Source of the DNA: an uncultured Candidatus Saccharibacteria bacterium
GTDB lineage: Bacteria; Patescibacteriota; CPR2_A; CAYFQT01
Direction: 5' to 3'
DNA: 64,000 nt
Assembly: GCA_964345445.1 (NCBI GenBank)
Contig: CAYFQT010000026.1
Coordinates: 5,685-69,684, forward strand
The translations under genes and the position numbers were made by a program. This document shows positions 3,006 to 60,829 of the stretch, in pieces (position 1 is the stretch's first letter; each line of letters begins with the position of its first letter). The notes below the pieces were generated by a model. It saw only the letters and a program-made list of their open reading frames with translations, was not told where the DNA came from and searched no databases.

Positions 3006-3043
3006 CTGCGTTAGAAGAAACCCTTCAATTATTTTATCTTTAA

Positions 3044-3117: not shown

Positions 3118-3137
3118 CGTCGAAACAAAATTTAAGC

Positions 3138-3165
3138 TTTCGCCCCGAAAGCTTTCGGGGCGAAA
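3138..3165. terminator. Perfect 28-nt palindrome (12-bp GC-rich stem, AGCT loop) between tRNA-Val and tRNA-Phe. Hairpin, possibly a terminator or processing site.
   Basis: TTTCGCCCCGAAAGCTTTCGGGGCGAAA equals its own reverse complement. Confidence 0.5.
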
Positions 3166-3186
3166 ATGAAAGGTTTGTTTGGACGC

Positions 3187-3262
3187 GCCGAGGTAGCTCA
3201 GGTAGTAGAGCACAGGTCTGAAAAACCTGGTGTCCCCAGTGCAAGTCTGGGCCTCGGCACCA
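3187..3262 (+). tRNA. tRNA-Phe (anticodon GAA), with encoded CCA
   Basis: Acceptor GCCGAGG/CCTCGGC + A + CCA. D-arm TAGCTCAGGTAGTAGAGC, anticodon loop ctGAAaa. The T-loop tgcaagt is atypical (G at position 55). Confidence 0.75.
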
Positions 3263-3562
3263 CGTCGAAGTTATTCCACTATACATCCTGCTTCAGCAGG
3301 CTGCACCGCTCCATAAACTTCTCCTCTTTCTACAAAATACTAAAGTATTTTGTCGAGTTGAAAAAATTCTAAAGAATTTTTGCGAAAAAGGAGCATTGCT
3401 GAAGATGGAAACAAAATTTTTGAAGAAAATTTTGTGGAATCGGAGGTTGAAAATTTTACCCGTAAAAATTCTTCAGAATTTTTACGGAAAAGGAGAAGTA
3501 AAGCGAAAATTGGAATGATTTCTTAGGAAGAAATCATAAAAATGGCAGCTTTACTTCGACGT

Positions 3563-3635
3563 GCGGGTGTAGCTCAGTTGATAGAGCATCTGCTTGCCAT
3601 GCAGAAGGTCGTGGGTTTAAGTCCCATCACCCGCT
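3563..3635 (+). tRNA. tRNA-Gly (anticodon GCC)
   Basis: GCGGGTGTAGCTCAGTTGATAGAGC. Anticodon loop ttGCCat, discriminator U as expected for Gly. The overlapping ORF 3542-3817 translates the tRNA (AGVAQLIEH... artefact). Confidence 0.85.
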
Positions 3636-3817
3636 TCGTCGGAATAAACTTCCAGCTTTTGCGAATTTGTTTTACAAATTTGCTACCACTTTCAGTTTAT
3701 TCCTCCTCTTTCGCAAAAAATCTGACGATTTTTTGCAAGACAAAAACATTAGGTGACCTATTTTTCCTGTTTATAAGCGGGGCAGGGTCCGCGGTCTGCC
3801 TGCCCGCCAAAGCCTAG

Positions 3818-3889
3818 GGCCTCGTGACCGAGTGGTTTAGGTAGCGGTCTGCAAAACCGCGTACGGCGGTTCAAATCCGCCCGAGGCCT
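3818..3889 (+). tRNA. tRNA-Cys (anticodon GCA)
   Basis: Acceptor GGCCTCG/CGAGGCC with discriminator U (Cys-typical). Anticodon loop ctGCAaa, T-arm GGCGGTTCAAATCCGCC. Confidence 0.8.
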
Positions 3890-3894
3890 CTGAC

Positions 3895-3990
3895 ACTGGC
3901 AGGCGGGCCTGCCCGCTAATGCAAGCATAGCGTTGCAGGCGGGCAAAACCGAGTACAGCATGCGAATCCGCTCCAGGCCTCCGTAATTAA
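3895..3990 (+). pseudogene. Degenerate tRNA-Cys-like 3' half (tRNA remnant) fused to a GC-rich dispersed motif
   Basis: gcaaaaccgagtacagcatgcgaatccgctccaggcctcc is about 70% identical to the 3' half of the upstream tRNA-Cys but does not form a cloverleaf. Confidence 0.4.
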
Positions 3991-4019
3991 CTCATCTAAG
4001 GCATAATCAGAAAAAATAA

Positions 4020-4103
4020 GGGCGAGTGGCGGAATTGGTATACGCGCGACACTTAAAATGTCGTCCTGTTTACAGGGTGAGGGTTCGAGTCCCTCCTTGC
4101 CCA
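4020..4103 (+). tRNA. tRNA-Leu (anticodon TAA), type II
   Basis: Acceptor GGGCGAG/CTTGCCC with discriminator A. Anticodon stem CGACA/TGTCG with loop ctTAAaa, long variable arm, T-arm GAGGGTTCGAGTCCCTC. Confidence 0.8.
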
Positions 4104-4368
4104 CGTCCAAATAAACTTTCAGTTTTCGCGATCTCACAAAGTGAAATCGCTGTCACTTACAGTTTATTCCTCCTCTTTCTTCAAAATACTAAAGTATTTT
4201 GACGAGTAAATATAATACTTCCGACTTTCATGATTTTGTAGAACAAAATCGTTCTTTTTTAAAAAATCCTTGATTTTTTGATTTATAAGACTTAAAATAA
4301 AATATCTATAAAGAACATTTACAATTAAATACAAGACGAAAATCAAAATTTTAAAGGAGTGATAGTTA

Positions 4369-5160: not shown

Positions 5161-5514
5161 TAGTAGAAAATTTTCCTACCCTTATATAGGTAAACCGTCA
5201 TTTAGTTGTTTTAAAAAAACATCTACTTGGCGGTTTTTTCTTTTGTCTAATTCTTAAATAATTTTTAGGCATAACACTTTTTAAGCCATGGCACAATAGT
5301 GTTATATTATAATTTGTTGCGAAATTCAGCTATGGCCTATTTTTGTTACAAAAAATAAAAGCCCACATTAAACTCATAAATATAAATGAGTAAAAGTGGG
5401 CTTTTTGTGTAATTATTTTATTAAACAAACAGAATAAAGATTATATTAGACTAATTTATTTTAAGATGGTAGAATAAGAATAAGATTTTTTGAAATTATA
5501 GACGGAGAGGAAGT

Positions 5515-6345: not shown

Positions 6346-6400
6346 AGAGATAAGAGATAGGGGATAGGAATTAGTAAAAATAAGACTTATAACTCATAAC

Positions 6401-6432
6401 CCATAACTTCTGCCAGAGGCTGATCCGCCTCT
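6401..6432 (+). terminator. Rho-independent terminator-like hairpin after the phosphoesterase gene
   Basis: TCTGCCAGAGGC-tgatcc-GCCTCTGGCAGA, a 12-bp GC-rich stem followed by an A/T-rich run. Confidence 0.5.
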
Positions 6433-6464
6433 GGCAGAAATAACTAATAACTAAGGAGTGACAT

Positions 6465-9242: not shown

Positions 9243-10733
9243 ATGCCCGAAAATGAAAATCAAAAATTATCCTCAGATCAAAAAAATATTGAAAAAACAG
9301 ACGCTGAGTGGCATATTAAAACAATAGTTCCTCCTGCGCACCTGATTAGAAAGTCTAAAATTTTAGCAGCCAGAAAAGATAGATTTTTCCGAAAAATTGC
9401 ACTTATTTTTCTTATATTTTTTTTACTTATAGCAGGTGGGGTGGCAGCAGCTACTATTGTAGAAGGTGATTTTTATTGGGCAAGAGACCTTTTGGGTTTA
9501 GGTTTGCCCAGAGATCCAGGGGAGGCTATAGAAAAGATTTATACCCAGATGGATAAACTAGAGGCAGTACATACCGAAATGGATATGGATTTGCTTTTAT
9601 CATCTGAAGGAATAAATATAAAAATTCCTATTGAGGCCTATGGCGATACTGTTTTTCCTGATAAACAAAGAGTAAAATTGACTGTTGATACAAAATTTTT
9701 AGTTTCTGCCTTAGGTTCACTTTTGCCTTCTGATATAGCTTCTGATTTAAAAGAAATAAAAATTGAATATATTACAGATGGTGAAGGTATTTATTATAAA
9801 ATTCCCCAAATTTTTGGGGAATTATGGATAGAAGATACCTATCAGCAGTTTTCTTCTGGTACTTCAAATTTTGAAGATTTTTCAGACTCTCAAGAAAATT
9901 TCCAAGAGGTAGAGAAATTACCATCAGAGACATTAAGCGGAGTAAGATGTTATCATTATAAAATAACTTTTGATACTAAAAAATTTCTGGAAGATCTAAC
10001 TGATGAAGACCTGACTTATGAAGAAGCTAGTCTTTTAAATAATTTAAAAATCGGAGGGGAGATTTGGGCTTCTAAAAAAGATTTTTTAATCCAGAGAATG
10101 AATATAAATATGTCTTTTACTTTCCCTTCTGATGTTATTGAACAAATAGCTTCCATTTTTGAAAAACATTTTTCTAGTTTTGCTCCTTATTTGCATTTTG
10201 ATCAAGTTTTAGGTACCTCACAAGATAAAAAAATAGAAGCTTATAAAAATCAAGATAAAATTAACATTTCTTTAGAAATCGTATATTCTAATTTTAATAA
10301 ACCTATTAATATTAAAAAACCTCAGGAAACTAAGAAAATTACTGATATTTCAGAAAGTGATATCATAGATTCTCCTTTAGGTCATCTTCTAAGTAGTACA
10401 ATTAGTGAAAGCGAATCAAGCATTAATGATATTCAAAGAAAAAGTGATTTATATCAGATTGGAGCTGCTTTGGAATTATATGCCGATGATAATTCAAGTC
10501 AATATCCTGCATTTTCCGGAATTATTAAAATAGATGGAAGTGATGAATTGTCTCAAGTATTAATAGGAGATTACCTGCCTTCTATGCCTCGTGATCCTAA
10601 ATTCCCTGAATATTATTATGAATATTTTTCTGACGGGACCAGTTATGAACTTATTTGTATTTTAGAAGATGAAACTGATCCTGAAGGAGAAAGAGTAGGA
10701 GATAGGTATATTTATAAACTTATCTCTGAATAA
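9243..10733 (+). CDS. hypothetical membrane protein with type IV pilin/pseudopilin (GspG-like) C-terminal domain
   Basis: ATG at 9243 follows the htpX stop and is preferred over the overlapping start at 9159. The TM segment IALIFLIFFLLIAGGVAAATIV and the C-terminus DLYQIGAALELYADDNSSQYP...PRDPKFPEYYYEY resemble pseudopilin globular domains. Confidence 0.45.
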   Translation: MPENENQKLSSDQKNIEKTDAEWHIKTIVPPAHLIRKSKILAARKDRFFRKIALIFLIFFLLIAGGVAAATIVEGDFYWARDLLGLGLPRDPGEAIEKIYTQMDKLEAVHTEMDMDLLLSSEGINIKIPIEAYGDTVFPDKQRVKLTVDTKFLVSALGSLLPSDIASDLKEIKIEYITDGEGIYYKIPQIFGELWIEDTYQQFSSGTSNFEDFSDSQENFQEVEKLPSETLSGVRCYHYKITFDTKKFLEDLTDEDLTYEEASLLNNLKIGGEIWASKKDFLIQRMNINMSFTFPSDVIEQIASIFEKHFSSFAPYLHFDQVLGTSQDKKIEAYKNQDKINISLEIVYSNFNKPINIKKPQETKKITDISESDIIDSPLGHLLSSTISESESSINDIQRKSDLYQIGAALELYADDNSSQYPAFSGIIKIDGSDELSQVLIGDYLPSMPRDPKFPEYYYEYFSDGTSYELICILEDETDPEGERVGDRYIYKLISE

Positions 10734-10774
10734 TTAAGTATAGATGATGTGAGGTTATTTGATATAATCGCTCA

Positions 10775-10890
10775 GGGAACGAAAATTTGCTTCTGCCCCG
10801 TAAAACGGGATAAACGGAGCTGTTTTTCGAACAGCTTACCCCGTAGGAGCGAAGCGACTTTCGGGGACCTCGTGCGCAAATTTTGTTCCC
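10775..10890 (+). ncRNA. Structured 5' leader upstream of ligA. A long-range stem encloses three hairpins. An extended -10 promoter (TGaTATAAT, 10761-10769) precedes it.
   Basis: GGGAACGAAAATTTGC (10775-10790) pairs with GCAAATTTTGTTCCC (10876-10890). Inner hairpins are CCCG-taaaa-CGGG, AGCTGTT-tttcg-AACAGCT and CCCCG...CGGGG. Confidence 0.35.
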
Positions 10891-14237: not shown

Positions 14238-14537
14238 ATGGCATTAACTAAGAAGCAAATTGAACATATTGCTATGTTGGCTCGTTTAGGTTTGACAGAA
14301 AAAGAAAAGAAGAGGTTTGAAAGACAACTTTCTTCTGTTTTGGACTATGTAAATCAACTTAATAAAGTAAATACAAAAAATGTCCAGCCAATTGCCCAAA
14401 TAACAGGACTTAAAAATGTAATGGAGGAGGATAAAGTAAAAAGTGATAAGGAGAAGATATCAAAAGATAAATTGTTGAAGAATGCGCCAATGCAGGAAGA
14501 AGGGTGTGTGAAAGTGAAAGCGGTATTAGAAGAGTAA
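14238..14537 (+). CDS. gatC: Asp/Glu-tRNA(Asn/Gln) amidotransferase subunit C
   Basis: MALTKKQIEHIAMLARLGLTEKEKKRFERQLSSVLDYVNQL is a canonical GatC N-terminus. Promoter-like TTGTCA-17-TATACT lies at 14152-14187. Confidence 0.85.
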   Translation: MALTKKQIEHIAMLARLGLTEKEKKRFERQLSSVLDYVNQLNKVNTKNVQPIAQITGLKNVMEEDKVKSDKEKISKDKLLKNAPMQEEGCVKVKAVLEE

Positions 14538-14596
14538 AGGTTACTATGAGTTACTAGAAGTTACTAATGGTTACTAAGAAAGTTACTAGAGGTTAT

Positions 14597-14992
14597 ATGC
14601 AAGAGGAAGCTTATAAAAAATTATTAGTTTGGAAAAATATTTGTGAGTTAAGAAGACTGATTTATAAAATAACTGAGAGATTTGCTAAGACTCATCCAAG
14701 ATTAGCTGGACAAATGAGAGACGCTACAAGATCAGCAAAACAGAATTTTATAGAAGGATATAAACGAGATTCAATTGGATTATTTATTCAATCTGTTAAA
14801 GTTAGCCGAGGCTCTTTAGGAGAATTGGATGGTGATATTGATGATTGTTATGAAGATAATTTAATTACAAAATTGGAGTATACTAATTTAAGTAATTTGA
14901 GTAAAAAATCTTTATACTTAATTGATAGATATATAGATTCGTTATATAAAATGCAAAAAGAAAAAACTTGGAGAGTAAGGTGGCAAAAATAA
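14597..14992 (+). CDS. four-helix-bundle protein (TIGR02436-like), inserted between gatC and gatA
   Basis: ...LLVWKNICELRRLIYKITERFAKTHPRLAGQMRDATRSAKQNFIEGY is characteristic of this family. ATG at 14597 has a better RBS (AGAGG) than the ORF-track start at 14567. Inverted heptamer arrays flank the gene. Confidence 0.65.
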   Translation: MQEEAYKKLLVWKNICELRRLIYKITERFAKTHPRLAGQMRDATRSAKQNFIEGYKRDSIGLFIQSVKVSRGSLGELDGDIDDCYEDNLITKLEYTNLSNLSKKSLYLIDRYIDSLYKMQKEKTWRVRWQK

Positions 14993-15059
14993 TTTTGCAA
15001 CCTTTAGTAACTTATAGCAACTATTAGCAACTATTAGTAACTTATATTTACTAATTAAA

Positions 15060-16646
15060 ATGAATTTAGAAAATCTTACAATTTTACAAGCTCATAAGAA
15101 GCTGAAAAATAAAGAGACTTCATCGGTTGAATTAACCAAAGCAGTTTTGGATAGAATTAAAAAGACTGATAATAAGATTAATGCTTTTATTACAGTCACA
15201 GAAAAAGAAGCATTAAAACAAGCAGAAGAGGCTGACAAACGGATTAAAACTGGAAAGATGCTGAGTAAACTTGATGGAATTCCAGTGGCTCTAAAAGACA
15301 ATATGGCAACAGAAGGAATTTTAACAACAGCTGGTTCTAAGATTTTAGAGAATTTTAAACCGCCTTATGATGCTACAGTTGTTAAAAAAATAAAAGATGC
15401 TGGTGCTATTATTATTGGCAAAACCAATATGGATGAGTTTGCCATGGGTTCTTCTTGTGAAACTTCTTATTTTGGTCCTACGAAAAATCCTTGGGATACA
15501 TCCCGAGTTCCTGGTGGCTCTTCAGGAGGTTCTGCAGCGGCTGTTTCAGCTTCACAATGCATTTATGCCCTGGGTTCTGATACCGGTGGTTCTATTCGCC
15601 AACCAGCCTCTTTTTGTGGTTGTGTAGGCTTAAAACCTACTTATGGTCGAGTATCTCGATATGGTCTTTTGGCTATGGCCTCTTCTTTGGATCAAATTGG
15701 ACCACTTGTAAAAAATACAGAAGATGCAGCAGCAGTTTTGGAGGCTATTTCTGGATATGATGGGGAAGATAGCACAAGCGTAGACAAAAAGTTCAAAGTT
15801 CAAAGTTCAAAGTTCAAAGTTTTAAAAAATGTAAAAATTGGGATTGCTAAGGAGTATTTTAGGGAAGGTTTAGATAAAAAAGTTGAAGATAAGATAAAAT
15901 CAGCGATTAAAGTTTTAGAGTCAAGGGGAGCCAAGATTGAAAATGTTAGCTTACCTCATACTCAATATACCTTAGCTTGCTATTATATAATTATGCCTTC
16001 AGAAGCTTCCACTAATTTAGCCAGATATGATGGAATAAAATATGGATATTCAACCACTCAAATCTCAAATCTCAACTCTCAAAACTTATTAGATGTCTAT
16101 CTACAATCAAGGGCAGAAGGTTTTGGAGATGAGGTAAAAAGGCGAATAATGTTAGGAACTCATACATTATCTTCAGGTTATTATGATCAATATTACTTAA
16201 AAGCTGCTAAAGTTAGAACAAAAATAAAAGAAGATTTTGACAAAGCATTTTCTAAAGTGGATGTTTTAATAACTCCTACTTCACCAACTGTTGCTTTTCC
16301 ACTCGGGGAAAAGTTAGATGATCCATTGACTATGTATTTATCGGATATTTATACAGTACCGGTTAATTTAGCCGGAGTGCCGGCAATTTCTGTTCCTTGT
16401 GGACTAGTTAAAAAGGTTACTAAAAGTTACCAAAAGGATACTAAAAAGTTACTAAAGAGAGTTGATAAAAATACTTTTAGTAACAATTTGCAACCCCTAG
16501 TAACCCCTAGTAGCTCATTATTACCTGTAGGTTTACAAATAATAGGTCCTCAGTGGGGAGAAGAGAAAATTCTACAAACAGCTTATATCTATGAACAGGC
16601 AACAAAAGATGAGGGGTGGAGGAAATTAAAGCCAAGTATAAAGTAA
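15060..16646 (+). CDS. gatA: Glu-tRNA(Gln) amidotransferase subunit A, with in-frame repeat insertions
   Basis: Amidase signature [11 protein letters not shown], plus [10 protein letters not shown] and the catalytic Ser/Lys context. Three low-complexity inserts are encoded by short DNA repeats. Confidence 0.9.
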
Positions 16647-16746
16647 TAGTAATAAGTAATAAGGAATCAAGAATAAAGGGTTAGGAATTAGGAATAGGGA
16701 ATAAGTAGTACTCCTTATAACTAATAACGGATAACTAGGAGCACAT

Positions 16747-18598: not shown

Positions 18599-20131
18599 AT
18601 GGAATATCAGACAATAATTGGATTAGAAATCCATGTACAATTGAAGACAAAATCTAAAATGTTCTGCAGATGTGATAATTATTCAGTGGATGCCAAGCCA
18701 AATATTAATACCTGCCCAGTATGTATGGGAATGCCTGGAACTCTTCCAGTGATAAACCAGCAAGCTATAGAATGGGCAGAAAAGACCGCCTTGGCTTTAA
18801 ATTGTAAAATTTCCTCATTCACTAAATTTGATCGAAAAAGCTATTTCTATCCGGACTTACCCAAAGGATATCAGATATCCCAATATGATATGCCTTTAGC
18901 GGTAGGAGGATGGTTGGATATTGATGTGCCAGAGTCAAAAGTTCAAAGTTCAAAGTCTAAAGTCCAAAATAAGATGTATACTAGAAGAATTAAAATCACT
19001 AGGTTGCATATGGAAGAAGATGCAGCAAAGTTAATTCATTCCGTAAAGGGACGTGGTCCCTACGGGACTTTACGTCCAGAGGTGGCAGATTATAGTTTGG
19101 TTGATTTTAACCGTGCCGGAACTCCACTTATGGAAATTGTTACAGAACCTGACCTAAGCTCCCCACTTGAAGCAAAGATTTTTATGCAGGAGTTAAGAAG
19201 TATTTTGCGATATTTAGATGTTTCTGAAGCTGATATGGAGGAGGGAAATTTGAGATGTGATGCTAATATATCATTAAGTCCAAAGTCCAAAATCCAAAGT
19301 CCAAAGTTGGGGGAGAAGGTGGAAATTAAAAATATAAACTCTTTTAAGGCTGTAGAGAAAGCTTTAGCTTACGAAGTGGAAAGGCAAAAGGATATTTTAG
19401 AAAGTGGGGACAAGATAGTTCAAGAAACTAGAGGCTGGATGGAAGATAAAGGCAGAACAATCTCCCAGCGAGGCAAAGAAGAAGCAGAAGACTATCGTTA
19501 TTTTCCCGAACCAGACTTGCCACCATTGGAATTTGAAAAAAAACAAGTAAAAGAAATTCAATCGAAATTACCTGAATTGCCTAACCAGCGCCAAAGAAGA
19601 TTTGTTAAAGAATATGACCTGTCAATGTATGATGCTCAGGTTTTAACTTCTGAGAAAGAAACATCTGTCTTTTTTGAAGACACAGTTCAAAAAATATCCA
19701 AATTAAATCACGAAAAGGCCAAGAGGGCGTGCAACTGGATAACAACGGAATTGCAATATTTACTTAAGGATAAAGATATAGATATTAGCAAATGCAAAAT
19801 TAAACCAAAGGATTTAGCCGAGCTTATTGGATTAATTGACAAAGGAGAAATCTCAGGGAAAATAGCCAAAGATGTATTCGTAGAAATGTTTAATTCCGGA
19901 AAAGCCCCTTCGGAAATTGTGAGTAAAAAAGGATTAAGACAAGTTAGTGATGAAGGAGAATTAGAGAAAATTATAGATAAAATTATATCTCAAAATAAAC
20001 AAGCAGTTTCTGATTATAAAGAAGGAAAGGAAAATGCATTTAAGTTTTTAGTAGGGCAGACAATGGCTTCTACCCGCGGTCAAGCCAATCCTCAGATGGT
20101 TAATAAGATATTGAAGGAAAAATTGAAATAA
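18599..20131 (+). CDS. gatB: Asp/Glu-tRNA amidotransferase subunit B, with two in-frame repeat insertions
   Basis: MEYQTIIGLEIHVQLKTKSKMFC.C...GMPGTLP and DFNRAGTPLMEIVTEPD match GatB. It carries a C-terminal GatB/YqeY domain. Confidence 0.9.
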   Translation: MEYQTIIGLEIHVQLKTKSKMFCRCDNYSVDAKPNINTCPVCMGMPGTLPVINQQAIEWAEKTALALNCKISSFTKFDRKSYFYPDLPKGYQISQYDMPLAVGGWLDIDVPESKVQSSKSKVQNKMYTRRIKITRLHMEEDAAKLIHSVKGRGPYGTLRPEVADYSLVDFNRAGTPLMEIVTEPDLSSPLEAKIFMQELRSILRYLDVSEADMEEGNLRCDANISLSPKSKIQSPKLGEKVEIKNINSFKAVEKALAYEVERQKDILESGDKIVQETRGWMEDKGRTISQRGKEEAEDYRYFPEPDLPPLEFEKKQVKEIQSKLPELPNQRQRRFVKEYDLSMYDAQVLTSEKETSVFFEDTVQKISKLNHEKAKRACNWITTELQYLLKDKDIDISKCKIKPKDLAELIGLIDKGEISGKIAKDVFVEMFNSGKAPSEIVSKKGLRQVSDEGELEKIIDKIISQNKQAVSDYKEGKENAFKFLVGQTMASTRGQANPQMVNKILKEKLK

Positions 20132-20457
20132 TTCGAAGAATATTGAGAATTACTAATGAACAATTGCTAATTTCTAATCAAATCCCAATGACTAATAAAG
20201 AAACAAAATTCTAAATCCGAAATTCTAAATACTAAATCCTAAATCCCAACGGGATCCCTTCGGGACAATATCAAATGACCAAAATGCTACCACAGCCCCA
20301 CCCAACCACCCTTTTATTGTATAGATTATATAACAAAACAATATAAGTTTAGAACATTGGAAAATTTGAATTTTGAATTTATTTAGGATTTAGAAATTAG
20401 ATATTAGAAATTTTATAAGATAAGTTAATTGTGTTATATTAAAACCAAGGAAAAATA

Positions 20458-21099
20458 ATGCGAAGAAAAAGAAAAGCAAAAGTTACAATAGAAGAAGATG
20501 AAGAAGTTACAACGGGTTGGTCCAAAGTCCAGAAATATTTGGAAGAGAAGAATATCAATTCTTTTCTTTTAGCTGTTTTAGAAGCTGATAAATTATTAGC
20601 CAAGGCATTAAAAGATAAAGGTTATCCTGGCAAGACCACCCAGGAGAAGATTGGAGCAGCCAAGGAAAAATTTACCAATATCAATTTTCTTCTTGGTGCA
20701 AGAGATATACGAGATAAGATTATTAATAAAATAGATTATAATCTTTCTTCTTTGGATTTAGAAGATGCTATTTCTGCCTATAGGCAAGCCATAATTGATT
20801 TAGGAGAAGAATCAGAGAAATTACCTATTTCTGAAAGATTATTACTTCTTTTTCATTATTATTATCCTTCTAAAAAACAAGCACTTAAAAAAATTATTAT
20901 TTATATAGTTTTATTTTTTACAATAGTTTGGTTTTTGTCTCATACTTCACTAGGACAAAATATTGTTAATATTGTAGTAGGAGTAACCAATATTATTTTC
21001 AGTTGGGTTTTAGCAATAGTTTTGTTGGTTGTGGGAGTTATAATTACGGTGATTGCAAGTCTTTTGTATTTTGAGAAAAGAAGGAAGGAAAGAAGATGA
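20458..21099 (+). CDS. hypothetical membrane protein
   Basis: Charged N-terminus, then two to three TM segments (IIIYIVLFFTIVWFL..., IVLLVVGVIITVIASLLYF). Confidence 0.4.
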   Translation: MRRKRKAKVTIEEDEEVTTGWSKVQKYLEEKNINSFLLAVLEADKLLAKALKDKGYPGKTTQEKIGAAKEKFTNINFLLGARDIRDKIINKIDYNLSSLDLEDAISAYRQAIIDLGEESEKLPISERLLLLFHYYYPSKKQALKKIIIYIVLFFTIVWFLSHTSLGQNIVNIVVGVTNIIFSWVLAIVLLVVGVIITVIASLLYFEKRRKERR

Positions 21100-21258
21100 T
21101 GTAAAAATTCTAAATCCGAAATCCTAAACAATATCTAAATTCCAATGTTCAAAATTCTAAACATTATATTTGTTTTGGTCATTTGGATTTAGATATTAGG
21201 ATTTGTTTAGAAATTAGATATTAGAAATTAGGATTTTAATTTAAAGGGGTGAACAAAT

Positions 21259-31311: not shown

Positions 31312-31628
31312 TGAAAAATATTGAGAATTTTGGGTGTGGAGACCCCGGTGCTTTGCACTGATATACACTATAAAGGGTCTCTTTTTTGTTTAATTATATT
31401 AAGTACCCAAAATATCTAGTAGTTAGTGTTATAATATTTTTTTATCTTTTAATTTAAAATAAATAACATTAGATCACAAAATTCAGCTATCGCATATTTT
31501 TGTGACAATGGAAGTTGTATAACCGAAGATTATTGGATTATTAGTATCTAAAATTATCCAAGAGTGTTATAATATTTTTAGAATATATTTTTTATAAAGA
31601 TTAAAATTAGCACCTTTGGTGTAGAATT

Positions 31629-36520: not shown

Positions 36521-37978
36521 ATGGTTAAAAATGTAATTTATATATGTGAGGAATGTGGGGGTTCTTTTCCTAAATGGATGGGGAAATGTCCTGAGTGTGG
36601 CAGGTGGAATAGTTTAGTAGAAACGATAACCCCCACTAGAAGGAAAAAATCAAGAGGTCAAGATTTAAAAAAAATAACTGTTGCAGAAAGACTGGATAAG
36701 ATTTCCACTTTAAAATTTGGAAGAGTTTCAACAGGTATTTTTGAGTTTGATAGAGTATTAGGAGGTGAAGGAACAAATCAGGGAATTGTGCCTGGATCAG
36801 TAGTTTTATTGGCTGGTGAACCAGGAATTGGAAAATCTACATTGCTATTACAAGTTTGTGGCAAGCTTGTAGAGAATAATCTAAGAGAAAAACACATAAC
36901 TCATAACAACACATCTCGGCAAAAGGCCAATCCCTCCCAGCCGGCAGGTGTGGCGCCTCTGGCGGGAACTCATGTCCTATATGTCTCTGGTGAGGAATCA
37001 TCTGGTCAGGTTAAACTTAGAGCAGACAGACTAGGCATTTCCTCCGGTAATCTTTTTATATTACCAGAAACAAATATTGATCAAATAATTTATACAATAG
37101 AAAAACAAAATCCTGCTTTAATTATTATTGATTCTATTCAGGCACTATATTCTCAGGAGATTGTTTCTCAAGCAGGGGCAATTCCTCAAGTTTATTTTTG
37201 CTCTTTGAGATTAAAAGATACAGCCAAAGAAAAGAAAATCCCTGTTTTTTTAATTGGCCATGTGACTAAAGCAGGAAGTATTGCTGGCCCTAAAGTTTTG
37301 GAACATTTGGTTGATGTTGTTTTATATTTAGAAGGAGAGAAATATCATACATATCGGATGCTTAGAAATATTAAAAATCGTTTTGGGCCCACCTCAGAAG
37401 TTGGTATTTTTGAAATGAAAGACAAAGGATTCTGCGAGGTAGAAAATCCATCAAAAGTTTTACTAGAAGAAAAATCTTCTACCGCTGGATCTGTTACTGT
37501 AGCTAGTTTGGAAGGAACTAGACCTATGTTGATAGAATTGCAGGCTTTGACATCAGCCACTTCTTTTGGTTATCCAAAAAGAACAGCTTCAGGTATAGAT
37601 TTTAATCGTCTCCAACTTCTTTTAGCTGTTCTTACAAAGAGAGCAGGACTTAGGCTTTTAAATCAAGATGTTTATTGTAATATTGTAGGTGGTTTTAAAA
37701 TTTCAGAACCAGCTTTAGATTTGGGAATTTGTTTGGCAGTAGCTTCTGCTTATAAAAACAAACCCGTTGATTCTAAGCTAGTTACATTTGGAGAAGTTGG
37801 TTTATCTGGTGATTTAAAAACAGTTTTTCATTCAGATGTAAGAATTTTTGAAGCAGAAAAATTAGGTTTTAAAAAAGCCCTAGTTCCTCAAAGTACTAGA
37901 TTAGAAGATTCAAAAAGAAAGATTAAAATATTAAGAGCTGGTGATATATCTCAAGCAATTAAAATAGCCCTTTTATAA
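36521..37978 (+). CDS. radA: DNA repair protein RadA (Sms), with a GC-rich in-frame insertion
   Basis: C4 zinc finger CEECGGSFPKWMGKCPECGRW, Walker A GEPGIGKST, KNRFG motif and a Lon-like C-terminal domain. Confidence 0.9.
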   Translation: MVKNVIYICEECGGSFPKWMGKCPECGRWNSLVETITPTRRKKSRGQDLKKITVAERLDKISTLKFGRVSTGIFEFDRVLGGEGTNQGIVPGSVVLLAGEPGIGKSTLLLQVCGKLVENNLREKHITHNNTSRQKANPSQPAGVAPLAGTHVLYVSGEESSGQVKLRADRLGISSGNLFILPETNIDQIIYTIEKQNPALIIIDSIQALYSQEIVSQAGAIPQVYFCSLRLKDTAKEKKIPVFLIGHVTKAGSIAGPKVLEHLVDVVLYLEGEKYHTYRMLRNIKNRFGPTSEVGIFEMKDKGFCEVENPSKVLLEEKSSTAGSVTVASLEGTRPMLIELQALTSATSFGYPKRTASGIDFNRLQLLLAVLTKRAGLRLLNQDVYCNIVGGFKISEPALDLGICLAVASAYKNKPVDSKLVTFGEVGLSGDLKTVFHSDVRIFEAEKLGFKKALVPQSTRLEDSKRKIKILRAGDISQAIKIALL

Positions 37979-39243: not shown

Positions 39244-39399
39244 AAATGTTAGATACCCGTTCTCTAACAAGGTTGAGTCTTCGGACAAGGTTAATAGAGG
39301 TCTTCTATTAATTAATTCTTAAATTTTCTTTTATTCCCAGATCACAAAAAAATGCGATCGCACATCTTTGTGACGGAATTAAATTATATAAATTATAAA

Positions 39400-39923: not shown

Positions 39924-40625
39924 ATGAGATTTAAGAAACTTTCCAGAAATTTTTATAATAGAAATACTTTAAGTATTGCTCAGGAGCTTTTGGGGAAATA
40001 TTTGGTAAGGCAAATAGGGCAGGAAGGTCAGGCAGGAAGGATTGTGGAGACAGAAGCCTATATTGGTCAGGATGATGATGCTTGTCACGCATCTCGTGGC
40101 AAGACAAGACGAAACGAAGTGATGTTTGGCTCTGCGGGCCATGCCTATGTTTATATGATTTATGGAATATATTGGTGTTTGAATATTGTAACAGAGAAAA
40201 AAAGATTTCCCGCTGCTGTTTTGATCCGTGCCTTAGAACCAGTAGAAAGTAGAAGGAATAGGGAATTAGAAATAAGTAATAAGGAATTAGTGATTAGGAA
40301 TAAGAAGCTTTTGAAAAATACGGGACAAGTAGGAATGAGTAGAATTAAGACAGATTCCATATTCCTTGGAACTAATACTTATACTCTCACTAATGGGCCA
40401 GGAAAGTTATGCCGGTGGATGAAAATTACCAAAGAATTAAATGGTGAAGATTTAGTAAATTCTGATAGATTATGGGTTGAAGATAGGAGAGAGAAAATTT
40501 TTAAAAAAGATATCATAAAAACCACCAGAGTAGGTGTTGACTATGCCCAAAATTCCAAAGGCCACCCCTGGCGGTTTTATATAAAGAACAGTCCTTTTGT
40601 TTCCAAAAAGATGAAATTTTTTTAA
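39924..40625 (+). CDS. mpg: DNA-3-methyladenine glycosylase (Mpg/AAG family) with an in-frame repeat-derived insertion
   Basis: IAQELLGKYLVR...GRIVETEAYIGQDD.ACHASRG.T.RN.VMFG.AGHAYVYMIYG...LN is canonical. An insert of about 35 aa precedes LTNGPGKLC. Confidence 0.8.
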   Translation: MRFKKLSRNFYNRNTLSIAQELLGKYLVRQIGQEGQAGRIVETEAYIGQDDDACHASRGKTRRNEVMFGSAGHAYVYMIYGIYWCLNIVTEKKRFPAAVLIRALEPVESRRNRELEISNKELVIRNKKLLKNTGQVGMSRIKTDSIFLGTNTYTLTNGPGKLCRWMKITKELNGEDLVNSDRLWVEDRREKIFKKDIIKTTRVGVDYAQNSKGHPWRFYIKNSPFVSKKMKFF

Positions 40626-41036
40626 AGAATATTTACCGATTTCTTAAATCATAGTAGTATTTTCAGTAAATATTTTTATAACGCTTTTCTGGCGACCGTC
40701 CCGATTTTCATCATTAAAGTTTGTAAATAAAAGTAATCGAGGATCCTGACTTCCTTAAATTAAAAAGTATAAAGTCGGGACAATATATTTTTGTAATTTT
40801 AAATACCCCACTTTTCATGCCATGGCAAAATAGTTTGGTAAATTCTCATATTTCACTTTTTAAGCCATGGCACAATAGTGTTATATAGAAAACATATAAA
40901 AAAAGACCGAAGCTGTGAATATATAATAAATAACTTCGGTCCCCAACCTCTCCTGCATATTATAATCAATAATAAGTGCGGGGGATTTTTCATATAGAAG
41001 AGGTTGGGGTTTGTTCGGAATAAGATCACTTCTGTT

Positions 41037-44265: not shown

Positions 44266-44516
44266 CTTGTGTTAAGTCAACCTAAATTATATCAAAAATG
44301 TGAGAATGTTCAAGATGTTGGAAAAAAGACACGAATGTCACACGAATAAGATAGCACGAGTTTAACACGAATCTAGAAAGTTGTTCAAGTTGTTCAAATT
44401 GTTCTATCCTCCACCCTCGATAAACTCGGAGTCAATTGTTCAATTGGTCTCTGGTCTTGTTTTATTTGTAATTAATTCGTAACTAATGATATACTAAAGA
44501 AAGGAGGGAGTTTGTT

Positions 44517-45707: not shown

Positions 45708-45846
45708 ACGGTTAGGGTTACGGTTACGAAGTTGGTATCGAAATTCGGTTAAGGTTACGTGAATTTTTTGTAGACGAACTTCGTAACCCTCAGACGATAC
45801 GCACTTCCTAACCGTAACCGAAAGACGTAACCTTAATATTAATACT

Positions 45847-48066
45847 ATGAAACTTTCTACTCCTGTTTTCAAGCTCACTGGAGTAGGTGAGAAATATTTA
45901 GAGAAATTGCACAACCTGGGCATAAAAAGAGTCGAGGATCTTCTTTTTTATTTCCCTAGAAAATATAATGATTTCAGCCAAATTATTCCTATTAATAAAA
46001 TACAATTAAAAGAGATAGCTACAGTTTGTGGAACTATTTGGGAAATTAAAAATCAAAGAACATATAAAAAGAAAATGATGATTACCACAGCAACCATAGC
46101 AGATAATTCCGGAACCATAAAAGCTATTTGGTATAGACAGCCTTATTTGACTAATAGTCTTAAACAAGGTTATGAAGTTATATTTTCTGGAAAAGTAGAA
46201 GAGGATAAGGGAAAACTAATTTTTCAAAATCCAATTTATGAAGTTGTTAAAGATGTTCAAAATGTTAGCAAAAAACAATTACAGCAAGCTTGCCCCTATA
46301 TCCATCGGGACAAGCAATCGAACAAACATAGTGATCGAACAAGCTTGCCCCAAAAACCTTCGGAGTGGGCGATTGAACAACTTACTCATGTTGGCAGAAT
46401 TGTTCCTTCCTATTCGGAAACAGAGGGTTTAACTTCCCGTTGGCTTCGATATAAAATTAAGCCTCTTTTATATTTAGTAGAACAAATAGAAGACTATTTA
46501 CCTTCTGAAGTTAAAAAAAATCAGAATCTAATAGATTTATCGCAGGCGATAAAACAGATTCATTTTCCGGAAAATCATAATTTACTTAAAAAGGCTAAAA
46601 AAAGACTTAGTTTTGACGAGCTTTTTTTAATTCAAGTAAATAATTTGAAACAAAAGATTAATTGGCAAAAGGAAAAAGGCGTGGCTTGTAAATTTGATGA
46701 AAGGCTAACTCGAAAATTTGTTTTAAGCCTGCCTTTTGATTTGACTTTAGATCAAAAAAAAGCAGCTTGGGAAATTCTCCGTGATTTACAGAAATCAATT
46801 CCTTCAAACAGACTTTTGGAAGGAGAAGTAGGCTCAGGAAAAACTGTTGTAGCAGTTATTGCTATGCTTTCAGTAATTAAAAATGGAATGCAAGTAGCCT
46901 TTATGGCTCCCACAGAAATTTTAGCTCAGCAACATTACAAAAAAATCAGTTCTTATCTTGCTCCTTTTAGAATAAAAATTGCTTTACTTTTAGGAAGCAC
47001 TAAAAAGAAAGAAAAAGAAAAAATCCGAAAGCAGATTGAAAAAGGCAAGGTAGATTTAGTTATAGGAACTCATGCTTTGATTCAAGACTACAACCCACCC
47101 ACCACATCCTCCCGTCCCGACAAATCGGGACGGGCCCCTAAAATTAATTTTAAAAACTTAGCTTTGGCTATAATTGATGAACAACATCGTTTTGGTGTTG
47201 CCCAAAGAGCTGCTCTGCGGGAAAAGTCAGGTGATAAGCATAGTCCTCATCTTTTGACTATGACAGCCACTCCTATTCCTCGCACACTAGCTTTGGCTTT
47301 ATATGGTGATTTAGATTTGTCTATAATTTCTGAACTTCCTCCGGGGCGACAGAAAGTTATCACCCAACTGGTTAAACCTCAACAAAGAGAAAAAGCCTAT
47401 AAGTTTGTCAAAGACCAGATAAGGAGAGGAAGACAGGCTTTTGTTATTTGTCCTTTAATTGAAGAATCAGATAAATTGGGAGTGAAATCAGTAACTTTAG
47501 AATATGAAAAGTTGTCTAAGAAAATTTTCCCTGATTTAAATATTAGAATGTTACATGGTAAGCTTAGATCAAAAGAAAAAGAAAAGATAATGGGCGATTT
47601 TGTCCGGGGTGAAATAAATATTTTAGTTTCTACTTCTGTTGTGGAAGTAGGAATTGATGTGCCAAATGCTACAGTTATGGTTATTGAAGGGGCAGAAAGA
47701 TTTGGCTTGGCTCAATTACATCAATTCAGAGGACGAGTAGGACGAAGTAAATTTAAATCCTATTGTTTTTTGTTTACTGAATCAAAAACTAAGAAAATTT
47801 TTGCTCGACTTTATACATTAGTTAAGTCTTATGATGGATTTAGACTAGCTGAAGCAGATCTGAGAATTAGAGGACCGGGAGAAATTTACGGTATGAGACA
47901 ACATGGTATTCCAGACTTGAGAATGGCTTCTTTACAAGATGTAGATTTGATTAAAAAAGCAAGGGAAGAAGCAGAGAAATTATTAGGGGAGGACCCCCAA
48001 CTTGAAAAACATCCAAAATTGATTTCAGAAATAGAAAAGTTTGTAACAATTAGGCATCTGGAATAG
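45847..48066 (+). CDS. recG: ATP-dependent DNA helicase RecG, with two in-frame repeat/hairpin insertions
   Basis: Wedge/OB domain and helicase motifs (GEVGSGKT, DEQHRFG, TATPIPRT, QLHQFRGRVGR). 739 aa. Confidence 0.9.
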   Translation: MKLSTPVFKLTGVGEKYLEKLHNLGIKRVEDLLFYFPRKYNDFSQIIPINKIQLKEIATVCGTIWEIKNQRTYKKKMMITTATIADNSGTIKAIWYRQPYLTNSLKQGYEVIFSGKVEEDKGKLIFQNPIYEVVKDVQNVSKKQLQQACPYIHRDKQSNKHSDRTSLPQKPSEWAIEQLTHVGRIVPSYSETEGLTSRWLRYKIKPLLYLVEQIEDYLPSEVKKNQNLIDLSQAIKQIHFPENHNLLKKAKKRLSFDELFLIQVNNLKQKINWQKEKGVACKFDERLTRKFVLSLPFDLTLDQKKAAWEILRDLQKSIPSNRLLEGEVGSGKTVVAVIAMLSVIKNGMQVAFMAPTEILAQQHYKKISSYLAPFRIKIALLLGSTKKKEKEKIRKQIEKGKVDLVIGTHALIQDYNPPTTSSRPDKSGRAPKINFKNLALAIIDEQHRFGVAQRAALREKSGDKHSPHLLTMTATPIPRTLALALYGDLDLSIISELPPGRQKVITQLVKPQQREKAYKFVKDQIRRGRQAFVICPLIEESDKLGVKSVTLEYEKLSKKIFPDLNIRMLHGKLRSKEKEKIMGDFVRGEINILVSTSVVEVGIDVPNATVMVIEGAERFGLAQLHQFRGRVGRSKFKSYCFLFTESKTKKIFARLYTLVKSYDGFRLAEADLRIRGPGEIYGMRQHGIPDLRMASLQDVDLIKKAREEAEKLLGEDPQLEKHPKLISEIEKFVTIRHLE

Positions 48067-49506: not shown

Positions 49507-49596
49507 GCGGGCGTGGCGGAATTTGGAAGACGCGCGTGGCTTAGGACCACGTTCCCATTTATGGGATTGGAGGTTCAAGTCCTCCCGCCCGCACCA
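49507..49596 (+). tRNA. tRNA-Leu (anticodon TAG), type II, with encoded CCA
   Basis: Acceptor GCGGGCG/CGCCCGC + A + CCA. Anticodon stem CGTGG/CCACG with loop ctTAGga, variable hairpin CCCAT-tt-ATGGG, T-loop TTCAAGT. Confidence 0.85.
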
Positions 49597-49644: not shown

Positions 49645-49727
49645 TAAAAATATAATTTAAAATGACCTAAGCGGTCTTTTTTTATTCCTAAAATCCTTGA
49701 CAAATAACCTATTTTAGGATATAATTA

Positions 49728-49867
49728 AGTAATTACATTTGAAAATATAATCAAAGATTACTTAATTACGCTTAAGCTGTGCGAAAGCACTAATTAGATA
49801 ATTACATTTGAAAATATAATCAAAAATTACTTAATTACGCTGGATTAAAATGTAAGCACTAATTGGG
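49728..49867. repeat. tandem direct repeat of about 70 bp (2 copies) containing TAATTAC/GTAATTA motifs
   Basis: TAATTACATTTGAAAATATAATCAAAGATTACTTAATTACGC...AGCACTAATT recurs at 49800 with one mismatch in the first 42 bp. Confidence 0.7.
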
Positions 49868-50035
49868 TAATTAAGTTCAAATTGTTCAATCGCTCGTTTC
49901 ACTTGTTGTTCAAAATGTTAACCAATAACATCAGCGCAAATCCGCGGCATAAAAATCCGCGTAAATCAGCTTTTTGTAATATCAGCGTAATCTGTGTTAT
50001 ACAAAAATAAACATCAAAAATAAAGGAAAAACAAA

Positions 50036-55260: not shown

Positions 55261-55812
55261 AAGTTACAGAAGAACAAAATAACAAGAGAACTGAAGAACC
55301 AAATAGCCAACAAACAAAAAATATAATTGTTATTCTGTTAGTGAGTTATTTAGTTATTAAGTTTATTGAAGCTTGACTTTTCTATTGGGTATGTTATTTT
55401 TAAATATCCCATTTTTTTGTTCTTTAAAAAGCAATATTGGAAGAGGATTTGTAAAGACAAAATCAAACCTTATTTAGGAGGTTGAGTGAAATGAGTAAAG
55501 AAAAACTTTCAAATAATGAAATAGCAGAGTAAGTAGGCAAGCGAGCTAGATTTGTTTTATAATGTCCATATACAGAAACTATTACTAACTGTGGTGGTTT
55601 GCCATTTTTTCCTTGTAATCATCCAAAGTCAGCATTATATTTTGGTAAAGATGAAGGTGAATCAATTTGTGTAATATATGAAATGGTTATGGGTAGTAAT
55701 AGAGGCGATTTTGGAGTTGGACAATGTCGTATTAAAGATGACTAGTTTTTTTCTAGTCGCTACTGTTCAAGAAAGATATAGTTTGAGAATTTTATTTAGG
55801 AGGGATGAAATA

Positions 55813-56187
55813 ATGAAAGCAGAAACCCGTATTCGTAAAGATGAAGTAATAGTAGAAAATGCTTGTAAAGCAGTATTAAATGGTTTGAGCTCTATAACTA
55901 TATGGGATTTTCCCAGTAGTAATGTTCAAGAAGTTCATATTGATAGTTCTTTATGTTTTGGAATTACCTTAAAAAGTGGTTATAGAGTTTTCTTTAAACG
56001 AGAAAAAAGGTCCAGAAATTTTGTAGTATCGCGATGCGGTGCTTCAGATTCTGATTTTGCTTGGGCATGTCTTTCAAAAGACGAAAAATGGGTACCTATT
56101 AAACATTTCGATGACAAGATACCAAAGAATGCTCTAAGAATTCCAGTTTTTGGACTGGAAAGAGTAACAGAAGAGATAGCCAGCTGA
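55813..56187 (+). CDS. hypothetical protein, paralog 1 of a tandem pair
   Basis: RBS AGGAGGG 8 nt before the ATG. The C-terminus ...NALRIPVFGLERVTEEIAS is shared with the next gene. Confidence 0.45.
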   Translation: MKAETRIRKDEVIVENACKAVLNGLSSITIWDFPSSNVQEVHIDSSLCFGITLKSGYRVFFKREKRSRNFVVSRCGASDSDFAWACLSKDEKWVPIKHFDDKIPKNALRIPVFGLERVTEEIAS

Positions 56188-56211: not shown

Positions 56212-56646
56212 ATGGAAATGAAGGCAAAGGTTCAAACAGGGTATTTTCATGGAAAAGTCTCAGTGAATCATAGCCAAGTAGGTGAAACTGAGATAAGCGG
56301 TGAGAGAAATTTTTACACTATATTTACTGATATTGGAAGCAAAACAGGTGAGATAATTAAAGAAGTCCAAGTTGATCTTGATGATCCTGTGAAGTTCGCA
56401 ATTGAAAGAAAAGATGGATATATTATTTATATTGAACAAGAAATCAGTAATAGCAATCCAGAAAATATCATTATTACGAGATGTCGCAGCAAAAAAGATG
56501 GAAGCCTAGATTTGGATAGTGCTGAATATCTATCACAGCGAAGAGAATGGATCAAGAAACCAGAAGGCTATGGTCGGTTGCCAGACAATACTTTGAGGAT
56601 TCCGTTGTTATTATTGGAAAAAGTGCCAGAAGAAGTGAAAAATTAG
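56212..56646 (+). CDS. hypothetical protein, paralog 2 of a tandem pair
   Basis: Identical RBS context TTTAGGAGGGATGGAAATG. C-terminus ...NTLRIPLLLLEKVPEEVKN. A long imperfect hairpin + T-run terminator follows at 56660-56730. Confidence 0.45.
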   Translation: MEMKAKVQTGYFHGKVSVNHSQVGETEISGERNFYTIFTDIGSKTGEIIKEVQVDLDDPVKFAIERKDGYIIYIEQEISNSNPENIIITRCRSKKDGSLDLDSAEYLSQRREWIKKPEGYGRLPDNTLRIPLLLLEKVPEEVKN

Positions 56647-57283
56647 TTTAAAAATTTCAGGGTCAATTCGGTGAGATTTTGTTTATATATGTTGAAATAA
56701 GCTGAAATCTTGCAGTCTTGACCCTCTTTTTTATATTAATTCTATTTACAAATATACGCGATCGCGGTATATTGTTAATGATTATTAATAAGAAATGTTA
56801 TTTTTGTTGCCTTTGTTACTTTTGTTACATCTGTTATTTCACCCCTTGCATTGCTTTTTCTTTTTGTGTATAGTAAAATATGTTATAATAAAGATAGTTC
56901 AAATTGTTCAATCGTTTGTTTTACTCACTTATTCAGAATGTTCAAATTGTTGTCATGAATTTCTCTCGAATTATATCGAATTAAATCCCGAATTTGAACA
57001 CGAATAGAATATTCGAGTATTATTTGTGTAGATATTCGCATACTATTGGAGAATGATTCGTGAAATTTCCTTAATTGACATTATTTTTAGATATATGTTA
57101 GACTAAAAAAGGTGGGTTTTATTCTAAGAGACAAGTAATTGAATATTTTTATATAACCTCGTTTTTTCTTTGATTATAAGGGAAGAGAAGGAGGGATATT
57201 TTCTATTTGTTAGTTAGATTAATATTAATATTGAAAAGTAAAGTGTAACCAATTTATAAAACAATAAATGAGGGAAATAAATT

Positions 57284-60658: not shown

Positions 60659-60829
60659 GCAGCTTCGTCTGTTCAGATTGTTTAATCTTTCGTTTCACTC
60701 ACTTGTTCAAATTGTTCAAATTGAACAAGCGACTCCGATAAATATCGGAGGAGCGATTGAACAAACGAAGTCTCGCTGAGCGAGACGAAGTGATTGAACA
60801 TATTAACGTAACTAAAAGGAGCAAATTGA

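Follow-up and report, generated by a model that had tools for sequence, protein, structure and literature searches.

G+C-rich hairpins occur in AT-rich genomes as the GC clusters of yeast mitochondria (including those in var1) and the double-hairpin elements of Allomyces, and the short tandemly repeated repetitive (STRR) sequences of cyanobacteria are heptanucleotide intergenic repeats. In Rickettsia, palindromic elements (RPEs) form families of 100-150 bp whose consensus and encoded peptide are both conserved (work of 2000 and 2002; PMC10969869), and protein-coding palindromes have been described as a Rickettsia peculiarity. Repetitive hairpin elements are reported from sponge mitochondria (PMC2800124) and coding palindromes from Nematomorpha (PMC6649704), and TAACTGA heptanucleotide repeats from Beggiatoaceae (PMC4679880). 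Here we describe two in-frame inserts, a repeat block (block 1) and a G+C-rich hairpin with a leader (block 2), in the recG gene of an uncultured Candidatus Saccharibacteria bacterium of the candidate phyla radiation (CPR). The gene lies in a stretch of 64,000 nucleotides (32.8% G+C) of contig CAYFQT010000026.1, assembly GCA_964345445.1, which was analysed as a whole and is called the window below. The inserts are probably selfish or mutational repeat and hairpin DNA of the type found in spacers, which has colonised recG in frame and is tolerated in loops of the protein.

The two inserts in recG

The features of the gene, all on the + strand, are as follows.

45847..48066, + strand, recG coding sequence, 739 aa, intact
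46264..46380, + strand, insert 1 (block 1), 117 nt, 39 aa (VSKKQ...WAIEQ), in the linker between the wedge and helicase domains
46285..46296, + strand, direct repeat copy 1, CAAGCTTGCCCC, exact, read Q-A-C-P
46316..46325, + strand, motif copy AATCGAACAA, read S-N-K
46333..46342, + strand, motif copy GATCGAACAA, read D-R-T
46337..46380, + strand, full unit GAACAAGC-(24 nt, weak hairpin)-GCGATTGAACAA
46340..46351, + strand, direct repeat copy 2, CAAGCTTGCCCC, exact, 55 nt 3' of copy 1 and in another frame (T-S-L-P)
46371..46380, + strand, motif copy GATTGAACAA, read IEQ
47089..47139, + strand, insert 2 (block 2), 51 nt, 17 aa (YNPPTTSSRPDKSGRAP), C-rich leader CAACCCACCCACCACATCCTCC followed by a hairpin
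47111..47134, + strand, perfect hairpin CCCGTCCCGA-CAAA-TCGGGACGGG, 10-bp G+C-rich stem and 4-nt loop

The Pfam domains of the 739-residue protein are RecG_wedge, DEAD, Helicase_C and RecG_dom3_C, with none besides. It matches Thermotoga maritima RecG (1GM5) at E = 1e-153, E. coli RecG (9WM0) is also matched, and the top matches are RecGs of Patescibacteria/Parcubacteria; recG is a working gene. The protein was compared with these two solved structures and with other CPR RecGs in an alignment of 17 and then of 120 sequences, in which the relatives used throughout are P0002 (locus L001, 76% identical RecG, syntenic) and P0003 (locus L003, 74%). The original prediction that both segments are insertions was borne out, the ortholog alignment showing each to be lineage-specific, and neither was found in the RecGs compared, unrelated bacteria among them. 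Both blocks are in frame and without stops, and the peptides predicted across the inserts include YNPPTTSSRPDK and SEWAIEQLTH. An AlphaFold2 model made with the 120-sequence alignment has a mean predicted local distance difference test (pLDDT) score of 82.7 and is confident outside low segments, with pLDDT below 50 at residues 138-179 (block 1), 415-429 (block 2) and 677-691 (neither block). Both inserts are thus modelled as disordered loops within an otherwise confident RecG fold, and the consequence for recG alone, two disordered loop extensions, is probably small.

Block 2 is a clean insertion. It adds exactly 17 residues relative to 1GM5 and 9WM0, between ALIQD and KINFKNL, is missing in 119/119 other CPR RecGs aligned (the nearest two included), and has clean edges at codon level against L001 and L003. 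Its G+C content and its G+C content at third codon positions (GC3) are both 65%, against 33% and 22% for the remaining recG, and among 14,313 in-frame 17-codon windows of the plus-strand open reading frames (ORFs) only block 2 and an insert in radA, described below, reach at least 65% G+C. Both blocks had been placed in linkers between domains, which holds for block 1; block 2 lies inside helicase (RecA-like) domain 1, in a loop 14 residues before motif II (DEQH) that is flanked in the AlphaFold2 model by helix 409-413 and motif II strand 438-444.

The hairpin of block 2 is translated in frame as SRPDKSGRA, in agreement with the original prediction, and the fold of its DNA gave -13.5 kcal/mol (z = -6.4). 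As RNA it folds at -20 kcal/mol, a stability equalled by 0/200 dinucleotide shuffles, and it is the top-stability window of recG (0/224 others match). Perfect hairpins whose stem has 8 or more bp, with 5 or more G-C pairs, occur in the window once in an ORF (block 2) and five times in intergenic DNA. The exact 24-mer is present in three metagenome contigs of 41-57% GC and non-CPR context (L065 186-209, L066 1164-1187, L067 3141-3164). In L066 and L067 a stop codon directly precedes it and a T-run comes next, and in L065 it has A-run and T-rich flanks. In these contigs it looks like an ordinary intrinsic terminator, which shows the sequence to be of terminator type. Within the window, the sole match to the hairpin, a 12-mer at 40696-40707 (E = 0.17), was judged to be chance.

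A functional nucleic-acid signal within recG, be it an internal terminator or attenuator, a place of ribosome pausing or of RNase III action, sites for a factor recognising TTGTTCAA (treated below) in spacers, or stem-loop guides of the TIGR-Tas type, would suit the undecayed state of the perfect 10-bp stem and the service of the 24-mer as a terminator elsewhere. We regard it as very unlikely. The tail after the stem in recG (CCCCTAAAATTAA) holds no T-run and the terminator scan makes no call, so an internal terminator was rejected; Rfam gave no family match for the recG inserts; and the inserts of other CPR RecGs vary in sequence and position. An intein or self-splicing intron, taken to require splicing domains or a ribozyme and at least ~130 aa or ~200 nt, was also rejected, the inserts being 17 and 39 aa with no Pfam domain beyond those of RecG and no Rfam match.

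Block 1 adds about 39-41 residues relative to 1GM5 and 9WM0 and is a rare insertion in the 120-sequence alignment, with 44% G+C and 43% GC3. Positions 46258-46311 are missing from the nearest orthologue by BLAST. The linker has ~9-10 residues in most CPR RecGs, about 38 extra ones in the window RecG, and 15-19 extra residues in P0002 and P0003, where they are encoded by other short repeats (the 9-nt tandem ACCTCTGAT in L003; GTGACACC...CTGACACC in L001), and codon-level alignment with L001 and L003 leaves only about 57-66 nt of block 1 specific to the window, a layered history. Since the repeats of the relatives are shorter and different, the site was expanded before the three lineages split and re-expanded with different DNA in the window lineage. 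Block 1 is therefore extra relative to the orthologues, as predicted, but stands in a linker that was already repeat-expanded in the two nearest relatives.

The two 12-mers and three motif copies that had been reported in block 1 are all present, as is the 10-bp hairpin of block 2. The 12-mers and motif copies are read in different frames, which makes them repeats at the level of DNA, with no peptide repeat. With at most one mismatch, CAAGCTTGCCCC has 3 matches in the window against 0.13 expected. In the motif copy at 46333-46342 a C replaces the consensus T; GATTGAACA at that place would read GAT-TGA, an in-frame stop.

Motifs shared by recG and spacers

In the 64 kb, RATYGAACAA is matched exactly 8 times where 1.1 matches are expected, a number reached in 0/100 shuffles. 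Three lie in recG, five in four intergenic spacers (44436, 49882, 56904, 60719 and 60755), and none in other ORFs. The spacer copies are the following.

44378..44445, no strand assigned, TTGTTCAA-family copy in the divergent spacer of a penicillin-binding protein (PBP) gene and tyrS; AAGTTGTTC three times, a hairpin, then AATTGTTCAA
49875..49927, + strand, TTGTTCAA-family copy (family D2), intergenic, nhmmer E = 0.004
56897..56949, + strand, TTGTTCAA-family copy (family D2), intergenic, upstream of rpoB, nhmmer E = 2e-4
60671..60801, + strand, fullest copy, in the rpoB-rpoC spacer; left arm of TTGTTCAA copies, right arm of three RATTGAACA

Among themselves the spacer copies make up family D2 (nhmmer E = 2e-4 to 4e-3). 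In the right arm of 60671-60801 the RATTGAACA copies stand 36-37 nt apart with small hairpins between them, the whole being a composite palindrome, and 60665-60810 folds at -30.5 kcal/mol (z = -5.4).

The 12-mer GCGATTGAACAA is found at 46369 in recG, at 49882-49893 (- strand) and at 60753-60764, with a further copy at 56904 carrying one mismatch (4 in all, where 0.2 are expected). The layout GAACAAGC-(22-24 nt)-GCGATTGAACAA is confined to recG (46337-46380) and the rpoB-rpoC spacer (60723-60764), which makes 2 against 0.00 expected. What block 1 shares with the spacers is accordingly one 12-mer, 10-mers and the layout of a unit, all of them short. From these likenesses block 1 is best read as diverged units of the TTGTTCAA/TTGAACAA family, in which a short conserved motif is followed by a variable weak hairpin and the motif again. 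The claim that block 1 consists of copies of an otherwise intergenic motif stands in so far as RATYGAACAA is confined to recG and spacers; the similarity is short and, over the whole element, does not reach significance (see below).

Block 1 corresponds to about two and a half units of the right-arm kind, two of which, ~70% identical by eye, stand as a 55-nt tandem duplication with the perfect 12-mer CAAGCTTGCCCC in it. Such a duplication would be expected of a purely local de novo origin, by slippage, tandem duplication and intrastrand template switching (quasi-palindrome formation or correction), with no mobile element and with the likeness to intergenic DNA reflecting the same mutational bias acting everywhere. 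The 9-nt tandem repeats at the same linker in relatives point the same way, as do the sharing of motifs by in-gene arrays mainly with neighbours a few kb off (gatA with gatB; the gatA C-terminus with the arrays at 14.5-15.0 kb) and the fact that every hairpin has its own sequence, block 2 being single-copy in the window. We nevertheless consider a local origin unlikely, since the 12-mer GCGATTGAACAA and the 44-nt unit layout are common to spacers 3.5 and 14 kb off, far above chance, slippage leaves a 51-nt, 65% GC, clean-edged block in a 33% GC gene unexplained, and the 13-mer CGCCTCTGGCGGG recurs in the radA insert and in the recG inserts of two other CPR lineages.

The spacing of the motif copies, 36-38 nt with small hairpins between them in recG and at 60719-60801, bears again on a functional signal, as the TIGR unit is 36 nt long, stem-loop TIGR arrays are described from CPR and a single tigRNA is reported to be intragenic (bioRxiv 10.64898/2026.09.09.750476). 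A TIGR-Tas array is defined there by an adjacent tas (Nop-domain) gene, at least 4 units (also the minimum of TIGRFinder) and box C/D flanking two ~9-nt spacers (bioRxiv 10.64898/2026.09.09.750476). The ORFs of the window contain no Nop/Tas domain, there are only 2-3 units, and their spacers are self-complementary hairpins, unlike two 9-nt guides flanked by box C/D; a TIGR-Tas array was rejected. Block 1 was also rejected as a heptanucleotide array, its motif being 9-10 nt long and its copies 16-38 nt apart.

A scan for the unit pattern in a genome collection that does not contain this genome gave 55 single chance matches, all in unrelated taxa. Two family patterns, sought in viral sequences, had matches within phage genes only, which were put down to chance. 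The pattern GAACA(A)GCTTRCCCC is found also in the spacer at 10829-10842; it was defined post hoc and is given little weight. The spacer copy sits in an apparent structured RNA stem. The ~125-nt intergenic segment concerned (10760-10890, upstream of ligA) is closed by a long stem (GGGAACGAAAATTTGC / GCAAATTTTGTTCCC) with hairpins inside it, and may be an unannotated structured RNA; it has no Rfam match at the gathering threshold. Near the other spacer copies, a 69-nt tandem repeat (49722-49873; 2.2 copies, 81% matches) separates tRNA-Leu (49507-49596) from the copy at 49875, and a paralogous ORF pair without Pfam match (55678-56187 and 56212-56646) lies directly upstream of rpoB.

Comparable inserts in other genes and other CPR genomes

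The pattern is not special to recG, a point missed in the original prediction: it is also seen in radA, a DNA glycosylase gene, gatA and gatB. Comparison of the window ORFs with their L001 orthologues gave the first two as further window-specific in-frame inserts.

36902-36973 (in ORF 36521-37978), radA insert (HNNTSRQKANPSQPAGVAPLAGTH), 24 aa, a G+C-rich hairpin missing in the nearest orthologue
40257-40388 (in ORF 39924-40625), methylpurine DNA glycosylase insert, 44 aa, an array of seven AAGGAAT heptamers plus an inverted arm
15788-15821 and 16401-16523, gatA arrays, AAAGTTC x4.9 and TAAAAAGTTAC arrays, the latter encoding a C-terminal insert
18929-18968, 19049-19077 and 19276-19307, gatB arrays and hairpin, AAAGTYC heptamers and a G+C-rich hairpin, translated

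The glycosylase insert resembles the spacer arrays at 16633-16741 and 393-429, and only its translated frame is open, the other five frames being stop-rich. Against solved structures, GatA has a 35-aa C-terminal insert encoded by the TAAAAAGTTAC arrays, and GatB a 14-aa insert from the AAAGTYC array plus extra residues at the G+C-rich hairpin. The arrays of gatA match those of gatB (E = 0.003-0.007) with the same heptamer, and the best match of the gatA C-terminal insert is to the arrays flanking the neighbouring 23S_rRNA_IVP gene (around 14.5-15.0 kb).

Most spacers, in the window and in L001, share one plan, in which an array of heptamers (7-10 nt) is followed by a G+C-rich hairpin and an inverted array. 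The heptamers vary by place and between related genomes, and Tandem Repeats Finder (TRF) shows many period-7 arrays, both in spacers and within the gatA, gatB and glycosylase genes. Spacers with this plan are listed below.

6389-6454, window
14535-14595 with 15004-15042, window
20148-20412, window
21104-21236, window
45708-45846, window
9826-10000, L001
19296-19368, L001

Inverted arrays bracket two small genes, a 23S_rRNA_IVP-family ORF (14567-14992) and the ORF at 20458-21099. Other repeats of the window include a 33-nt exact repeat in two spacers 35 kb apart (5275-5307 = 40854-40886) and an adjoining three-copy family (5314-5349, 31471-31506 and 39339-39374) of TCACAAAA-N18-TTTTGTGA symmetry, a candidate binding site for a regulator. 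Seven tRNA genes are interleaved with G+C-rich hairpins at 2787-4104, and a degenerate tRNA-like duplicate follows tRNA-Cys at ~3900-3988.

Rare insertions, defined as insertions of at least 8 aa, were sought in the RecG homologues of the 120-sequence alignment, which are CPR sequences only, and are present in 36/120. They cluster at about 7 sites (query residues ~140, 318, 375, 388, 412-415, 544 and 587), and the recurrent sites ~140 and 412-415 are those of the two recG inserts in the window. The DNA of ten inserts from eight other recG genes was folded. For 6/10, 0/200 dinucleotide shuffles were equally stable; 7/10 rank first or second in stability within their own gene, and 3/10 are no hairpin outliers. 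The L062 insert is an 81-nt near-perfect palindrome (-63 kcal/mol), and those of L060 and L073 are hairpins of 75-83% G+C in genes of roughly 40% G+C. The 13-mer CGCCTCTGGCGGG is common to the L060 and L073 recG inserts and the window radA insert, in frame in all three, and a close variant makes the spacer hairpin at 6408-6439. Rare, mostly very stable hairpin inserts were seen in the recG loci L060, L061, L062, L063, L073, L074 and L076, those of L062 and L074, and of L060 and L073, being apparently homologous within the pair and of unequal length. The CCGCCAGAGGCGG/CCGCCTCTGGCGG hairpins of CPR genomes are a candidate cross-lineage family.

The repeated expansion of the same two sites in other CPR RecGs, and the in-frame, stop-free state of both inserts in a conserved enzyme, could also be read as adaptation at the protein level, the loops being selected as new peptide segments (for example partner-binding or regulatory) and the DNA repeats incidental. 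This is scarcely probable, as the repeats are read in different frames and so give no peptide repeat, different lineages have unrelated peptides at any one site, disorder is predicted for the segments, their GC3 is far from the codon usage of recG, and hairpin symmetry is a feature of nucleic acids. The contig evidently comes from a metagenome assembly and has the repeats elsewhere as well, so mis-joining of intergenic repeat reads into recG was also considered; such an artefact is extremely improbable, given that both blocks are exact multiples of three, stop-free and in permissive loops, and that independent CPR assemblies carry the same kind of insert at the same sites.

We tentatively suggest that CPR genomes harbour undescribed selfish DNA, made of hairpins and short-motif arrays, that has repeatedly colonised the same few permissive loops of essential genes, and, as part of the same proposal, that this DNA may correspond, on the scale of a phylum, to the RPE of Rickettsia and may steadily supply otherwise streamlined proteins with new loop sequence. 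Full-text literature searches gave no account of repeats or hairpins inserted in frame into protein genes of CPR, which is no proof of novelty.

Origin of the inserts and comparison with described elements

On the explanation we favour as probable, spacer-type DNA (motif arrays and hairpins) would be copied or moved at the DNA level and would sometimes land in genes, blind to the reading frame. It might be a mobile element of the non-autonomous kind, or it might spread through template switching or ectopic repair involving hairpins or repeats that lie close to each other. The inserts that survive in essential genes would be those with a length that is a multiple of three, no stop and a place in a permissive surface loop, and we infer that these are translated, as disordered loop extensions, and are neutral. 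In block 1, newer units would have been placed over an older, shorter repeat insert in the wedge-helicase linker; in block 2, a terminator-type hairpin with a C-rich leader would have dropped into a loop of helicase domain 1. The motifs that in-gene arrays share with neighbours a few kb away, together with the lack of target-site duplications, lean toward a copy-from-nearby process, and the 12-mer and unit shared at 3.5-14 kb, with the cross-lineage 13-mer, lean toward families of elements.

Several results weigh against colonisation by spacer-type DNA. As a whole element, block 1 matches the spacer copies with nhmmer E = 0.2-0.6, the best match outside intergenic DNA and not significant alone, so that the case rests on the pattern statistics. 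The TTGTTCAA motif is absent from 22 kb of the nearest relative, which would make the family very young or fast-evolving. Block 1 is no folding outlier (z = -1.7 to -2.1), 44/202 recG windows being equally stable. Its 5' flank GTTGTTAAAGATGTTCAAAATGTT is ~88% identical (manual alignment) to the array at 44380-44403 and is also present in L003, so that it is probably old coding sequence and some of the family resemblance may be ancestral; this flank may have offered the microhomology to which the newer DNA was drawn. Set codon by codon against L001 and L003, neither recG block has a target-site duplication, and no clear terminal inverted repeats bound them; around block 1 there is an 8-bp AAGTTGTT/AACAACTT pair, overlapping coding sequence that is conserved. 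The hairpin at 47111-47134 has no second copy in the window even at 3 mismatches, which leaves the label of an element, in the sense of a repeat family, unproven for block 2, the original prediction having called both blocks inserted elements. Its 24-mer has only 14 independent bases, so the matches in L065-L067 are taken as convergence and define no family. The window ORFs, all housekeeping or domainless, include no transposase, RAYT (REP-associated tyrosine transposase) or Nop/Tas gene.

If the explanation is true, reduced, host-dependent genomes with weak purifying selection may generally leak intergenic repeat and hairpin DNA into genes. This would account for some of the lineage-specific insertions that hamper annotation, alignment and phylogeny of CPR marker proteins, and the inserts would show, as a map drawn by nature, which loops of RecG and other enzymes are permissive. 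A further question is how RecG, a helicase acting on branched and hairpin DNA, can bear a perfect hairpin within the gene that encodes it. The recG case is of moderate interest in itself, and would be of more if the CPR-wide pattern holds.

[quoted passage not shown] The flanking duplication of a MITE is lacking at both block junctions against L001 and L003, and within the window no transposase was seen. Repetitive extragenic palindromes and the mosaic elements they form (REP/BIME) and the pneumococcal SPRITE (PMC3733652; PMC10969869) are likewise short G+C-rich palindromes, imperfect or perfect, resembling intrinsic terminators. They are extragenic and multi-copy, with REP tied to the RAYT transposase, whereas block 2 is single-copy in the window, lies in an ORF and has no RAYT in the window. 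The REP superfamily tag CGTC is found in the stem of block 2, a 4-mer coincidence at this level of evidence. A REP/RAYT palindrome is recognised as a high-copy, extragenic sequence of 20-40 nt with a GTAG/CGTC head and a RAYT gene, and block 2 was rejected as one.

STRR and TAACTGA repeats have a parallel in the tandem 7-nt (and 9-nt) arrays that fill the spacers here and are the source material of the gatA, gatB and glycosylase inserts. The arrays of the window differ in that each spacer mostly has its own heptamer, in inverted pairs around a hairpin, and in that they also stand in frame within genes. The mitochondrial hairpin elements are alike in being G+C-rich in an A+T-rich genome, mostly intergenic and sometimes coding in frame and translated, and are what block 2 and the radA insert resemble best; they are organellar and eukaryotic, with many near-identical copies, and block 2 is without known copies.

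The likeness to RPEs (PMC10969869) is in short repeats of non-coding type found both in spacers and in frame within unrelated housekeeping genes, with inserts in surface loops compatible with the fold and a host-dependent bacterium of small, AT-rich genome as host. Occurrence in both spacers and an ORF applies to block 1 (RATYGAACAA, three in recG and five in spacers) and not to block 2, which has no second copy. A fold-compatible site is predicted for both recG inserts by the model (pLDDT below 50, the rest confident). In hairpin folding the copies are divided, block 2 (z = -6.4) and 60665-60810 (z = -5.4) being stable and block 1, at z = -1.7 to -2.1, no outlier within the gene. The differences are that no sequence relationship is apparent, as set against the description of the RPE consensus families, and that the phylum is Patescibacteria; that only a 10-12-nt motif or a heptamer is conserved here, around variable hairpins, with three reading frames and no conserved peptide; and that block 2 is a single hairpin of no known family. 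By analogy, then, the recG inserts appear to work like RPEs and mitochondrial hairpin elements and belong to neither family. That repeat and hairpin DNA can be tolerated in frame within genes was known already; new is its occurrence in a phylum for which no such description was found.

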